Virus record (IMG/VR): IMGVR_UViG_3300023223_000669
Location: 1-64,000 of that record
DNA length: 64,000 bases
Direction: 5' to 3' (one strand)
DNA from: a virus
In this document: one piece after another, positions 8,453 through 14,798 of the stretch
Layout: every line of letters begins with the position of its first letter
Position numbering within the stretch: position 1 is the stretch's first letter
Position numbers and translations under genes: made by a program
The notes under the pieces: model-generated
What the model was told of the DNA's origin: nothing
The model's input: only the letters and a program-made list of their open reading frames with translations
Databases searched by the model: none

Positions 8453-8542
8453 TGGAGGTAGGTGTGGGATTTGAACCCACGGAGCCCCTAGGAGCCCTAC
8501 GGCTTAGCAAGCCGCTGCAATAGACCACTCTGCCAACCTACC
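8453..8542 (-). tRNA. tRNA-Ser(GCT)
   Basis: GGTAGGT/ACCTACC, GCGGC-TTGCTAA-GCCGT, long variable arm, CCA. Confidence 0.93.
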
Positions 8543-8716: not shown

Positions 8717-8791
8717 TGGTGCCGCCTCTAGGTACTGCCCCTAGACCCTCGGCTTTTCAGACCGACGTGCAGACTTCTACACCAAAGCGGC
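8717..8791 (-). tRNA. tRNA-Phe(GAA)
   Basis: TCGGT-CTGAAAA-GCCGA; non-canonical T-loop GGCAGTA; CCA. Confidence 0.88.
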
Positions 8792-8832: not shown

Positions 8833-9279
8833 TCAACTCGTTTCAGGATTTGTTTTTCTGATGTAATCTGTGGCAGAGAGTAGAATATCAATGTTTTCTT
8901 TGAACATACCCAAGCCAGTATTACATTGTTGACACAACCACCCTCGATGCTTACCTGTTTTATGATGATGATCAAAGTGTGTGCCGGGACGACGTTTGCA
9001 AATAGTACAATTACCATCTACTCTTTTTAAGGCAAGAGCATCTTTTAACTCTATACCATATTTAAATCTGAATTGACTTTCACGGCGTCTTTTAGGGTGT
9101 TTATCATAATATCGTTTAGAACGGCTACGACCATCTTTTTTATGTTTCTCTGTCCCCGCTTGTTTTAAATGGTAATGTATAGCTTGTCTACTAACACCAA
9201 GACGACGTGCAATTTCTGACTGCGAAATGCCTTCGTCATACATGCTGCTGATGCTAGACGAATTAAGTTTAGTATTCAC
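8833..9279 (-). CDS. HTH + endonuclease VII-type HNH endonuclease
   Basis: SQSEIARRLGVSRQAI HTH; KYGI...CTICK...FDHHHKTGKHRGWLCQQCNTGLG. Confidence 0.85.
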   Translation of the reverse strand: MNTKLNSSSISSMYDEGISQSEIARRLGVSRQAIHYHLKQAGTEKHKKDGRSRSKRYYDKHPKRRRESQFRFKYGIELKDALALKRVDGNCTICKRRPGTHFDHHHKTGKHRGWLCQQCNTGLGMFKENIDILLSATDYIRKTNPETS

Positions 9280-10396
9280 TTGGTAAATCTATAATATCTC
9301 TAAAAACGATGCCTACCGGGAATCTTGGCAAACAATCGTCCGTCCTATCAAAAAAACGTACAGTCAACATTTTACCAATGTATTGATCGGCTTCCTGATA
9401 CATACGTCGTCTTTCCTGCATCGTAGTTTTCATCGTGCATTCAAAAGTACGATCATTGTTGTCGTTCCGGCAGACAAACACCACGCAGCCCGCCATCTTG
9501 CCCTTGCCGTCGCGAGCACCAGTGACTTCGAACTCGTCGTCTTGAAACTGCTTCACTTTCAAGAGTTCTGCTGAGCGATAACCCCAAAGGTATAAACCTT
9601 CGTATCCCCTCAAAATTGCCCCTTCATAACCCGCCTGAATAAAGTTACCATGCTGTTCCCAAAGGGCCTGTTCGTCTTGTACGGTTTTGCTACGTACAAT
9701 TTGAACACAAGCGGACTCAACTACCACGGTTTCAAGATGGTAACGACGACGACTCCAGGCGAGAGAATCATCACCTTCAATCATTGGCATGTCATATACG
9801 TGATAGACAAGCTGTTCGCTTTCGGGCTTGTATGATTTTCCGTTAGGATCGGCAGATTTCGCCCATGATGTGATACGCTGGCAAGATTCGCCATGCACAT
9901 AAATCTCGCCGTCCAGGACTGTACCTTCTGGTAACCAATTAGCTAGTTGCTCAGCAATAATCGGTAGAGTCCAGGGCTTGCCCTGGCGGGAGGTAAGCGA
10001 AATCGTGCCATCCTCAGCCCTTTGGGCTAAGCATCGTACACCGTCGAGCTTAGGTTGAGCGTCTCCGGGCCACACAAACTTCTTCTTTTTCGAGCCTTTA
10101 TACCCATGAGCTAACATAGGCAAGGGTAGTTGCTCCTGAGCCGCCTCTGGCGTCTCGCTGTATTTTCTTTGGACCTTGTAGGTCCAAAGGGCCTTGGCTT
10201 CCAGATCAGCTTGTTCCTCAGGTAAGGTCTCGTTGGTCTTCCCAACATTCTTCGGTACGGCCACCTTCGGCTCAGAGGTCTGGAGCTTACCGTTAACCTG
10301 GCCGTACCGAGTGAAGATTTCATCGCCCACGGTCCAAATTTCCCATTGGCGGAGGTCTCCGCCTTTGGCCTTATGATACAGAATCGGATATTTCAT
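9269..10396 (-). CDS. ATP-dependent DNA ligase
   Basis: LPMLA, QPKLDGVRC, LDGEIY, YHVYD, GYEGAILR, LLKVK, C-terminal OB with RFP; WGR-like N-terminus. Confidence 0.92.
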   Translation of the reverse strand: MKYPILYHKAKGGDLRQWEIWTVGDEIFTRYGQVNGKLQTSEPKVAVPKNVGKTNETLPEEQADLEAKALWTYKVQRKYSETPEAAQEQLPLPMLAHGYKGSKKKKFVWPGDAQPKLDGVRCLAQRAEDGTISLTSRQGKPWTLPIIAEQLANWLPEGTVLDGEIYVHGESCQRITSWAKSADPNGKSYKPESEQLVYHVYDMPMIEGDDSLAWSRRRYHLETVVVESACVQIVRSKTVQDEQALWEQHGNFIQAGYEGAILRGYEGLYLWGYRSAELLKVKQFQDDEFEVTGARDGKGKMAGCVVFVCRNDNNDRTFECTMKTTMQERRRMYQEADQYIGKMLTVRFFDRTDDCLPRFPVGIVFRDIIDLPSEY

Positions 10397-11184: not shown

Positions 11185-12014
11185 AATAATACCGATGCTA
11201 GGAGTGCCATGCGTACTTGCACTCCGTATCCAATTTGTTTGAAGAAAACTGCTCGTGGATCGTTCTCCACTTCCTCGGGTAGCTCTGCTGTCCGAGGAAG
11301 AGGGTGCATGATAATTGCCTCTTTTTTTAGAAGAGGCAGCATAGCTTTTTCAATACCGTAGTAGTGATGTTCCGGGTGAAAATGTCTATGACCATTATCA
11401 ATACGCTCTTTTTGTGGACGAGTCATATAGATAACGTCCGCTTCGCGGAGTGCCGCTTCGTCTACAGACTCCAGCAGGCTTCGCTTAATGACTTCTACAT
11501 CGTATTGTTCTAGAAGCGTGGTCAGCGAGTTGACCGTGCGAGCGTGGTCGATATCTCCCCAGATCAGGATTTTGTTGCCATCGATCTGACCTTTTTCCTG
11601 CCGGATCGTGTAAAGATCCAGTAAAGCCTGCGTTGGGTGATGGCCTACACCATCGCCAGCATTGATCACCGGCACAGTGGAAACTCTTGCTGCTTCTTCT
11701 GCGGCACCACGGTCAGGGTGTCGCAACACAATTACATCGCCGTACTGGCAAACCACCTTCACGGTGTCGTGCAGGCTCTCGCCTTTCGCCACTGAGGCAT
11801 TTTCAAAGGCGTTTTCTACACTGAGCGTGCGTCCTCCTAGGCGTAGGGCCGCACACTCAAACGAAAGGCGAGTGCGGGTGGACGGCTCATAGAATAGTGA
11901 AACCAGCACGAAAGGCCGTCCGGTTGCGGTCAGCACGTTTGTGCTGTCCGCCAGCGTGAAAAGCGTTTCGATGCTCTCTCTGTCAAATTGGTCAGACTTG
12001 AGAATGTGTTTCAC
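11181..12014 (-). CDS. pyrB: aspartate carbamoyltransferase catalytic subunit
   Basis: SLFYEPSTRTRLSFE, KGESLHDT, VINAGDG, HPTQALLD, MHPLPR. Confidence 0.95.
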   Translation of the reverse strand: MKHILKSDQFDRESIETLFTLADSTNVLTATGRPFVLVSLFYEPSTRTRLSFECAALRLGGRTLSVENAFENASVAKGESLHDTVKVVCQYGDVIVLRHPDRGAAEEAARVSTVPVINAGDGVGHHPTQALLDLYTIRQEKGQIDGNKILIWGDIDHARTVNSLTTLLEQYDVEVIKRSLLESVDEAALREADVIYMTRPQKERIDNGHRHFHPEHHYYGIEKAMLPLLKKEAIIMHPLPRTAELPEEVENDPRAVFFKQIGYGVQVRMALLASVLF

Positions 12015-12474
12015 GCCGCAGTATAGCCTACCGCGATCACGTTGTCAAGAGAGATATTCAGTATCTTCTAGCACAATCAGCTTTCTTACCCGGACACTGG
12101 TGATTGTATGAACTCCGTATTCGCCGCAAGGAACGTGATCCATGAATTCTTCAAGTACTTCGATATCGATGTCGGAATACATTTCCATGGGGCGAGGGTC
12201 TTGTCCATATTCAGAAGTAACCCAATTGTAGTGTCCCTTGGCCTTGAGTGCTTCGATCAACGGCATCAAACGATCTAGCTGTTCTTGTTTGATAATCCAA
12301 GTCTCTTTAAGATAATCAGCGTCGTTCGTGTCAGCAGTAATGTTTAGTTCTAGGATGGGTTCTTGCATGGTCATATTATAGCCTATCGCGGTCACTTTGT
12401 CAAGAAATTTCTTGAGTATCTGATAATGCGATTCGTAAAAGACTAAGAAATCACAGCTAACACCGGGGTTGTTT

Positions 12475-12561
12475 TGGAGACCGGGGTGAGAATCGAACTC
12501 ACCTATCGGCTTTCGCCTTATGGTTTTGCAGACCATTGCCTACCCACTCGGCCACCCGGCC
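12475..12561 (-). tRNA. tRNA-Cys(GCA) with unusual long variable arm
   Basis: ATGGT-CTGCAAA-ACCAT, U73, CCA; 17-nt variable region containing GGC-GAAA-GCC. Confidence 0.85.
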
Positions 12562-12595
12562 TTTCAAAAAACGCTACAAGTATCCAATGTTACTA

Positions 12596-13078
12596 TTAGG
12601 TCCACATATATGGGGACAGGTCAATGATCTCTTTACACTTGTCGAGCAATTCTTTTTGATATTTTTCTTCTTCTTGAAAAGAATTCATATCGTTTAGTTC
12701 TTCTTCTGATAAATTCCAGGGATACCATTCGTCGTATTCCTCGGTCCACCATTTGTATAAGGTTTCCATGCGGTCTCGTGCGTCGGCTTGGTCGGGGAAA
12801 GCATCCCAATCGACGTGTCCGTCTCGAAGTTCCTTCTCGACAAAATCACAGAGCATTTCGAAAAGCACATGGGGAATTAAATGAGTTTTATCACTCCATG
12901 TGTGCCCCAGCTTGCGAGGTTTGACTGTGGTGTAACGATGCCAAGCCCAGCATTTAAAGCAATACCAAATCTGGCCGGGTCTCCACTCGTAAGGGACAAC
13001 CCTCCAGTAACAGGATTCAATTTTTTCGAATAGTTTCATTGTTTTGGTTGGAGCGGTGAGACTTGCACTCACTGTCAT
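12596..13078 (-). CDS. hypothetical phage protein (Trp/acidic-rich)
   Basis: 160-aa ORF. Confidence 0.6.
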   Translation of the reverse strand: MTVSASLTAPTKTMKLFEKIESCYWRVVPYEWRPGQIWYCFKCWAWHRYTTVKPRKLGHTWSDKTHLIPHVLFEMLCDFVEKELRDGHVDWDAFPDQADARDRMETLYKWWTEEYDEWYPWNLSEEELNDMNSFQEEEKYQKELLDKCKEIIDLSPYMWT

Positions 13079-13102
13079 TAAGATATAAGCTTAACGGCTC
13101 TA

Positions 13103-13564
13103 CTATTTTGCCTTCGCTCCGATATGTTCAATTAAAGATGCTAGATCAGACACTTGTTCTATCGAGTAGTGCCGACATACCATATCAACATTACCTTTTC
13201 TCCAAAAGCCGTCCTCGCAACACACGATAATGGCCTTATCCATATCAGTAGCATGTAGTCCTAATTCTAGTAATGTAATTGGAGATTTCGTGTTAGGATC
13301 AAAATAGAATATGATAAGATTAGCAGCATCCATTGCATCAATTTCCCACTGAACCTGTTGAACAAAACGATAATCTTCAAGTGTATTGCCCCACGAACTA
13401 TCCCAATCTTTGCGACGAGGATTGAGAATCGTGAGATCTACATCATGTAATTTAGTGATGACTTCATCTTGCCAATGTATAGCGGTGTCCTGTTCAATAC
13501 TGCCTGCTAGAAAGACAGAGAAGCCTTGAGGAAAGATTGGTTGGGGTGCGTAAATGACTTTCAT
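13103..13564 (-). CDS. nucleoside 2-deoxyribosyltransferase-like protein
   Basis: VFLAGSIE, WQ, LNPRRKDWD, QVQWE, KSPITLLELG, GFWRKGNVD. Confidence 0.85.
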   Translation of the reverse strand: MKVIYAPQPIFPQGFSVFLAGSIEQDTAIHWQDEVITKLHDVDLTILNPRRKDWDSSWGNTLEDYRFVQQVQWEIDAMDAANLIIFYFDPNTKSPITLLELGLHATDMDKAIIVCCEDGFWRKGNVDMVCRHYSIEQVSDLASLIEHIGAKAK

Positions 13565-14260: not shown

Positions 14261-14349
14261 TGGCTCCAGGGGGAGGAATCGGACCTCCGGTGGGGTTTCC
14301 CCCGCTTGACTAACAGTCAAGTGGCTTTTCCAACGTCGCCTACCCTGGA
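14261..14349 (-). tRNA. tRNA-Asn(GTT) with unusual long variable arm
   Basis: TCCAGGG/CCCTGGA, G73, CCA; CTTGA-CTGTTAG-TCAAG; variable arm GGGG-GAAA-CCCC. Confidence 0.85.
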
Positions 14350-14712: not shown

Positions 14713-14798
14713 GGTATTGTTTGGTCAGGAGCCGAGGCATCGAACCTCAATCTTGGGAGTCACAGTCCCGTATTTTAGCCATTTAAACTAGCCCCTGT

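Follow-up and report, generated by a model that had tools for sequence, protein, structure and literature searches.

A phage tRNA-Cys with a class II-like long variable arm belongs to a recurrent, mostly phage-borne family that keeps cysteine identity elements

Introduction

In the textbook division of tRNAs into class I and class II, long variable arms occur only on the Leu, Ser, Tyr and Sec isotypes, and this rule serves gene finders, identity studies and the design of orthogonal tRNAs. A preliminary description of a 64,000-nt stretch of viral DNA (hereafter the window), which covers the first 64 kb of an IMG/VR record that is complete at 183,100 bp and has direct terminal repeats, pointed to a gene that does not obey it: a tRNA-Cys(GCA) with a class II long variable arm, taken to be either a remodelled Cys tRNA or a tRNA that inserts Ser or Leu at Cys codons. 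The locus thus raises the question of which amino acid such a tRNA carries, and why it has the arm.

The only published long-armed tRNACys is selC*, which is of the 8/4 type and comes from anaerobic bacteria (PMC5389517; review PMC7609411), and the variable loops of tRNA-Cys in 61 cyanobacterial species have 3-7 nt (PMC6933170). Neither our literature searches nor the review of non-canonical tRNAs (PMC7609411) yielded an account of a tRNA-Cys from phages or Planctomycetota that combines 7/5 geometry with a long arm, and the phage 7/5 family appears to be undescribed. New here are its link to cultured Caulobacter and Brevundimonas phages and like-for-like frequencies in viruses and cells, as well as statistics on arm geometry and discriminators, a test of codon conservation and the co-occurrence of long arms on several isotypes.

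Results

Fold of the tRNA and of its variable arm

The gene and its diagnostic parts are the following.

12475-12561, minus strand: tRNA-Cys(GCA) gene, 87 nt including the encoded CCA, a 7/5 cloverleaf with a long variable arm (ARAGORN; Rfam RF00005)
12527-12529, minus strand: anticodon GCA in the loop CUGCAAA, with the context A36-A37-A38 (sequence; ARAGORN structure)
12503-12519, minus strand: variable region, 17 nt, AA-GGC-GAAA-GCC-GAUAG, with a hairpin at 12508-12517 (3 bp, GAAA tetraloop) followed by 5 unpaired nt (ARAGORN; energy evaluation; homologues)
12475-12478, minus strand: discriminator U73 (12478) and encoded 3' CCA (12475-12477) (sequence; ARAGORN)

ARAGORN places the boundaries at exactly 12475-12561 on the minus strand, the preliminary description having named no strand, and the gene exceeds the Rfam RF00005 gathering score of 29 with 51.7 bits (E = 7.5e-9). 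Read from the sequence, the acceptor stem has 7 bp (GGCCGGG/CCCGGUC) with a G2.U71 wobble, the D stem has 3 bp (GCC/GGC) plus G13.A22, the anticodon arm combines a 5-bp stem with the 7-nt loop CUGCAAA containing U33, and the T arm is GUGAG-UUCGAUU-CUCAC. The 7-bp acceptor stem, the 5-bp T stem, the UUCGAUU T-loop and G18G19 are those of an RF00005 elongator tRNA. The geometry is therefore 7/5 rather than 8/4 or 9/3, and an 8/4 arrangement is impossible because U8 faces C65, so that an eighth pair cannot form. The programs and the reading of the sequence together confirm a tRNA-Cys(GCA) with a class II-like arm, and each element reported earlier (the standard 7/5 fold, GCA, U73 and a 17-nt variable region holding GGC-GAAA-GCC) is found in it.

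Canonical bacterial tRNA-Cys, as in E. coli cysT, has the same GCA, U73, 7/5 geometry, 3-bp D stem with a 13.22 mismatch and G15, and the core sequences group together; the difference lies in the variable region, which has 17 nt with a hairpin here, in contrast to the 3-7 nt loop of class I. The last variable nucleotide is a G, which is possibly the G48 partner of G15 in an E. coli-type G15-G48 Levitt pair, position 48 being not uniquely assignable in a long arm. The variable region of most long-arm family members ends in C.

By energy evaluation, the cloverleaf reaches -31.3 kcal/mol with the variable hairpin and -25.6 with the hairpin open, so that the hairpin contributes about -5.7 kcal/mol. 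The unconstrained MFE of the single sequence is -34.1 and belongs to a fold other than the cloverleaf, an outcome often met when unmodified tRNA sequences are folded alone. Since single-sequence folding gave no cloverleaf, we relied on the cloverleaf energy and on comparative evidence. The variable regions of 34 long-arm Cys tRNAs exceed their shuffles in stability, with a mean z of -3.35, and the same test on true class II arms gives -3.2 for Ser, -3.9 for Leu and -2.0 for Tyr.

The long-arm Cys arms have stems of 3-4 bp, mostly 3 bp, and about 3 unpaired nucleotides on the 3' side, with 3 bp and 5 nt in the window. A class II tRNA-Tyr arm has the same layout (a 3-bp stem, 1 nt on the 5' side and 3 nt on the 3' side), whereas phage tRNA-Ser arms (n=35) have 4-7 bp, none fewer than 4, and mostly 1 unpaired nucleotide on the 3' side. 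The arm of the window tRNA-Cys is thus Tyr-like in geometry and unlike Ser. With GCA, U73, a stem of 3-4 bp capped by a tetraloop and 2-5 unpaired 3' nucleotides, the window tRNA has every feature by which we informally delimit the 7/5 long-arm family. The GAAA loop is not specific to Cys, because it is frequent in all phage long arms.

Distribution in phages and in cells

In GenBank the phage has no close relative, and GenBank phages hold no exact or near-exact copy of the 2-kb neighbourhood of the gene, nor viral contigs one of its anticodon arm joined to the variable arm. Long-arm tRNA-Cys genes are nevertheless present in the Brevundimonas phages Kabachok, Domovoi, Papperlapapp, Marchewka, Bambus, Kikimora and Gurke and in the Caulobacter phages CcrColossus, CcrPW, CcrRogue and BL64; the Kabachok gene as query retrieves the Caulobacter members and 2 of the Brevundimonas phages beyond those first met. 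GenBank labels these genes plain 'tRNA-Cys', the arm being unremarked. They share with the window gene a length of 85-89 nt, GCA, U73, the encoded CCA and a hairpin at the same position, and GGC-GAAA-GCC is identical in the window, Kabachok, Marchewka, Colossus and PW. The Kabachok tRNA (87 nt) has an identical T arm and the same distance between hairpin and anticodon loop at an overall identity of 75%; in it and the other cultured-phage homologues, the acceptor and anticodon stems differ from those of the window with full compensation. The carriers are jumbo Dolichocephalovirinae, unrelated to the window phage, whose TerL is only 24% identical to that of any isolated phage.

The variable stem covaries among the cultured-phage homologues, from GGC/GCC to CGC/GCG in Kikimora and GGUG/CACC with a GCGA loop in CcrRogue (MAFFT alignments misregistered the variable region, and the second one also the 5' end). 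These compensatory changes suggest that the pairing is maintained by selection and, with the -5.7 kcal/mol of the hairpin, they remove the objection that the arm does not form.

A pattern scan of IMG/VR for the Cys anticodon loop, a long gap and the T-loop found at least 33 long-arm tRNA-Cys genes from diverse contigs. In an unbiased slice of viral contigs, taken with a gap range wide enough for short and long forms alike, the long arm is present in 6 of 50 distinct tRNA-Cys genes (12%). The survey of phage tRNAs for GCA with a long arm that had been proposed therefore returns a recurrent type, and the window tRNA-Cys is a member of a mostly phage-borne long-arm family. The premise that long arms are confined to Ser, Leu, Tyr and Sec tRNAs holds as the textbook rule but fails often in phages, in about 12% of the sampled tRNA-Cys.

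Scanning 401 Pseudomonadota genomes with the same pattern gave only class-I-length tRNA-Cys among the matches listed, the 18 longer matches that were fetched being no tRNAs; the tally includes one unpublished genome (G388), which contributes a single class-I-length match. A relaxed pattern found no long-arm tRNA-Cys in 201 Alphaproteobacteria genomes. By contrast, a true tRNA-Cys(GCA) with U73 and a long arm is present in 3 of 101 Planctomycetota genomes, and in two of these its hairpin is the identical GGC-GAAA-GCC, so that the form is not strictly viral. The pattern CTGCAAA-N7-GGCGAAAGCC gave no tRNA among the 80 loci listed in cellular genomes; it demanded C32, and the planctomycete genes with U32 escaped it. 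With these genes found, we rejected the idea that long-arm tRNA-Cys is restricted to phages.

Whether the long arm is simply normal in the host lineage depends on the host, for which one further gene gives a clue.

14722-14797, minus strand: tRNA-His(GUG) with A73 and no encoded G-1 (sequence)

A tRNA-His with A73 and no G-1 departs from the usual histidine identity and is characteristic of one alphaproteobacterial group and of the phages of that group (PMC5389517). This type, the homologues in Caulobacter and Brevundimonas phages and a weak likeness of rIIA to roseophages point to Alphaproteobacteria as the probable host group. Assignments from TerL (24%, to Bacillus phages) and from rIIA (30-40%, mixed hosts) were uninformative as such. 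Given that the long form was found in none of the 201 genomes of this group, itself an unproven host, the possibility that the arm is the normal state of the host lineage is unlikely.

Cysteine identity and charging

U73 and GCA are the major determinants for CysRS, U73 alone being sufficient in minihelices (PMC9976931). Among the distinct long-arm GCA tRNAs, 32 of 34 have U73; in the same data set G73 is found in 30 of 35 tRNA-Ser, and A73 in all 18 tRNA-Tyr and all 35 tRNA-Leu. The Cys identity elements are kept in the long-arm tRNA-Cys. Neither a CysRS domain nor a class IIa synthetase core was found in the window phage, and host enzymes must therefore charge the tRNA.

In 94 tblastn alignments of ORFs of the window phage to 27 related loci, at a median identity of 42%, the residue opposite a Cys codon is Cys in 50% of cases and Ser in 8%, and Ser is no commoner there than Leu, Val or Ile. 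Cys is better conserved in the ORF alignments than Ser, Asn or Thr, and against relatives with a short tRNA-Cys, 22 of 24 Cys positions of the window phage are Cys to Cys. The gene is the sole tRNA-Cys among the called tRNAs, and Cys makes up 1.6% of codons in long ORFs.

Transcription of the gene can be judged from its flanks.

12375-12403, minus strand: sigma-70 consensus promoter, a perfect TTGACA-17-TATAAT, just downstream of tRNA-Cys (sequence)

There is no promoter-like site between tRNA-Cys and the upstream ORF and no terminator-like site in the scanned 11900-13300, so that maturation of the tRNA probably starts from the upstream transcript, at whose 3' end it would lie.

We consider it probable that the window gene is a functional elongator tRNA-Cys, charged by the host CysRS, with a selected short arm of the Tyr type. 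The tRNA would be cut from a longer early or middle transcript of the uncultured 183-kb phage, would receive cysteine from the host CysRS through U73 and GCA, and would read UGU and UGC in phage mRNAs, while the Tyr-type hairpin (3 bp and a GAAA loop, with several unpaired 3' nucleotides) would be maintained by selection, as in the rest of the mostly phage-borne family. The first option of the preliminary description, a remodelled but genuine Cys tRNA, fits everything that we checked: U73 and GCA kept in 32 of 34 members, Cys codons at conserved cysteines, and no CysRS of the phage's own.

Class I synthetases leave the variable region facing the solvent. Mukai et al. (2017, PMC5389517) found the long-armed selC* tRNACys to be charged with cysteine and active in translation, and together these two points suggest that CysRS would tolerate the arm.

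Selection or neutrality of the arm

The most serious rival to this reading accepts a working Cys tRNA and takes the arm to be neutral and merely tolerated. The hairpin would have been gained by insertion or by recombination of tRNA genes in phage clusters, and would persist, with no specific benefit, as CysRS, EF-Tu and the ribosome are indifferent to it. The history of the arm lends this account some credit. On a Cys-only tree, weakly resolved with only 69 columns, the long and short states are clustered, with 18 changes on the best tree against 30.6 in shuffles; at least 4 changes are required by the branches with strong support, which means that gain or loss of the arm has happened repeatedly. 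A single origin of the Cys arm was rejected on the same grounds. Sister phages found via a neighbouring gene carry a normal 74-nt tRNA-Cys (L008/L010), some phages have both the short and the long form (L199/L281), cellular Planctomycetota carry the arm too, and GAAA-capped arms are generic in phage class II tRNAs.

Neutrality sits less easily, however, with compensatory changes that keep the pairing across deep divergence, with a frequency of about 12% in phage tRNA-Cys against none found in more than 600 Pseudomonadota genomes (among the matches listed), and with the clustering of long arms on several isotypes in the same phages (kinship ignored). The frequency difference to cells and the multi-isotype clustering, again with kinship ignored, suggest phage-specific selection. 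We therefore give the neutral arm an appreciable chance, well short of even, and hold to the selected one.

Companion tRNAs and a possible role against nucleases

ARAGORN finds 16 tRNA genes in the window, and all but one of them lie at 8.4 to 21 kb on the minus strand. Besides tRNA-Cys, one gene of this set is long-armed outside the expected isotypes, as are several genes of relatives, whose long-arm tRNAs are of the Pro(UGG), Thr(UGU) (89 and 83 nt), Asn and Phe(AAA) types. Two ligases lie near or within the cluster.

14261-14349, minus strand: tRNA-Asn(GUU), 89 nt, U1-A72, G73, variable arm GGGG-GAAA-CCCC, Asn-like ends (ARAGORN; missed by Rfam at the gathering score)
L008:13948-14034, L008:15012-15100, L012:3546-3638 and L012:13093-13175, in relatives: long-arm tRNAs for Pro(UGG) and Thr(UGU), the latter of 89 and 83 nt, and one of 93 nt whose anticodon is AAA
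3494-4579, minus strand: RNA ligase (Pfam RNA_ligase and PHA02142 OB domain), near the tRNA cluster
9269-10396, minus strand: ATP-dependent DNA ligase, inside the tRNA cluster

The two ligases are equipment of the tRNA-repair type. A second long-armed class I isotype accompanies 17 of 32 phage loci with long tRNA-Cys and 8 of 44 with the short form (odds ratio 5.1, p ~0.003, kinship ignored).

One speculative explanation for a selected arm, in line with the nuclease resistance that the preliminary description gave as an example, is that tRNA-targeting nucleases may cleave a phage tRNA of this shape poorly, or that the arm may mark the tRNA as the phage's own, with recognition by CysRS intact; we hold this to be rather unlikely. 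The broader version, in which the arm would serve counter-defence or self-marking on Cys, Asn, Thr and other tRNAs against a nuclease whose contact face on the tRNA lies between anticodon stem and D loop, seems to us doubtful as well. The nuclease evaded might belong to a host defence or be an enzyme with which the phage shuts off its host. A hairpin that leaves the tRNA body at positions 44-48 would sit between nuclease contact sites; this position, the RNA ligase near the cluster and the ability of phage tRNAs to neutralise tRNA-cutting defences make steric escape plausible. To our knowledge, no nuclease targeting tRNA-Cys has been described in the relevant hosts.

The closest precedent is phage T5, whose tRNA-Lys, Thr and Asn neutralise AriB of PARIS, a tRNA-cutting defence (PMC12409363). 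As in the window, a phage copy of a host isoacceptor differs there from the host tRNA outside the anticodon, whereas no defence against tRNA-Cys is implicated and the variable arm is given no role (PMC12409363). Variable arms are mentioned neither in that paper nor in the one on bacterial Schlafen. The arm need not be an anti-defence device, because sister phages manage with a short tRNA-Cys and some Planctomycetota carry the long form.

Several further tRNA-like elements lie in the same part of the window.

8720-8791, minus strand: tRNA-Phe(GAA) with an atypical T-loop (Rfam 44.7 bits; missed by ARAGORN)
20500-20571, minus strand: tRNA-Gly(UCC)-like gene with a degenerate T-loop (Rfam 31.9 bits; missed by ARAGORN)
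21312-21412, minus strand: 101-nt tRNA-like element with large insertions (Rfam 33.1 bits; missed by ARAGORN)
20947-21031, minus strand: tRNA-Tyr(GUA), possibly degenerate, in which the acceptor stem is weak (U.G pairs, A.G mismatch) and the spacer nucleotide 26 is absent

Unusual tRNA genes were also seen in other phages of the survey. Kabachok has an 87-nt CAU tRNA with a long variable arm and U73 (L028:4177-4263) that adjoins a normal initiator-like tRNA-Met. A 362-kb viral contig carries a tRNA with a CUA anticodon (an amber suppressor or Pyl-like; L019:17865-17937) and a tRNA called with a 2-nt 'anticodon', and a 177-kb viral contig carries a tmRNA gene (L009:19611-19997).

Other amino acids and other functions

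A long arm could also let SerRS (or the enzymes for Tyr or Leu) charge the tRNA, so that a wrong residue would enter at Cys codons as recoding or deliberate mistranslation; this is the second option of the preliminary description, which had named Ser and Leu. SerRS ignores the anticodon and takes the size of the extra arm as its main determinant (PMC9976931), and since some SerRS enzymes accept U73 on long-armed allo-tRNAs (PMC5389517), low-level serylation of the window tRNA may still occur. U73 is also found in 5 of 35 phage tRNA-Ser genes, one of them in the window itself.

8453-8542, minus strand: tRNA-Ser(GCU) with U73 instead of the usual G73

The size and ends of the window tRNA nevertheless argue against the proposal. 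Its arm, with a 3-bp stem and 5 unpaired 3' nucleotides, lies outside the Ser range of 4-7 bp and about 1 nt (0 of 35 phage tRNA-Ser below 4 bp), and its U73, shared by nearly the whole family, is neither the G of Ser nor the A of Leu and Tyr. For TyrRS, the bacterial combination of A73 and GUA is replaced by U73 and GCA, and C35 and U73 remove major determinants. The codon alignments, in which Ser occupies a mere 8% of the Cys positions, do not support systematic Cys-to-Ser decoding in the window phage, and we regard the insertion of Ser, Tyr or Leu as very improbable. Very improbable too is a role outside translation, be it as a decoy for a host tRNA nuclease or toxin, as the substrate of a tRNA-dependent transferase or as a 3' processing signal of the upstream mRNA: the gene does close a transcription unit and is followed directly by a consensus promoter, and phage enzymes that use tRNAs for other chemistry exist (PMC13219725), but the full canonical set (7/5 helix, UUCGAUU, G18G19, the U33 loop, CCA and Cys identity) in the only called tRNA-Cys of a phage that uses Cys codons speaks for decoding.

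Discussion

The window tRNA-Cys resembles one published system in its parts and differs from it in its build. It shares the long variable arm, U73 and a Cys anticodon with the selC* tRNACys of anaerobic bacteria (PMC5389517). That tRNA has 8/4 geometry and resembles tRNASec in its body, its gene lies beside selB*/cysS*, and its anticodon is often UCA. The window tRNA, in contrast, is plain 7/5 and phage-borne, with no CysRS gene alongside.

A recurrent long-arm tRNA-Cys in phages, together with the co-occurring Asn, Thr and other forms, means that the class I/class II rule is routinely broken in viruses with the code unchanged. If the arm protects against tRNA-cutting immunity, it would represent a new, structure-based route of phage escape, and such a counter-defence would explain why class II-style arms recur on class I isotypes specifically in phages. 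A neutral arm would reveal the architectural latitude that CysRS, EF-Tu and the ribosome grant to a tRNA. The function of the arm is directly testable, because family members sit in cultured phages of Caulobacter vibrioides CB15.

As to the origin of the tRNA body, a comparison of long-arm Cys cores, without their arm and with a masked anticodon, places them near Ser as well as short Cys tRNAs; Ser neighbours are found for short Cys tRNAs too, and the core neighbours show no excess of Tyr. The window core is nearest to another long-arm Cys tRNA and to several ordinary short ones. A descent from tRNA-Tyr was considered in view of the like arm geometry and of an anticodon, GUA, that is one change from GCA; it was rejected, as the core neighbours show no Tyr enrichment and the window tRNA sits among ordinary Cys tRNAs on the Cys-only tree, and all 18 phage tRNA-Tyr compared have A73 in contrast to its U73.

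A separate case was met in a 9.3-Mb planctomycete genome, where a tandem array (L430, G413:C1:3006018-3009056) alternates 74-nt short-arm tRNA-Leu(UAA/UAG) with 85-nt tRNA-Tyr. One 85-nt tRNA of this array has GCA and A73, with acceptor and T arms identical to those of the Tyr copies, and looks like a remoulded, Tyr-derived tRNA with a Cys anticodon.
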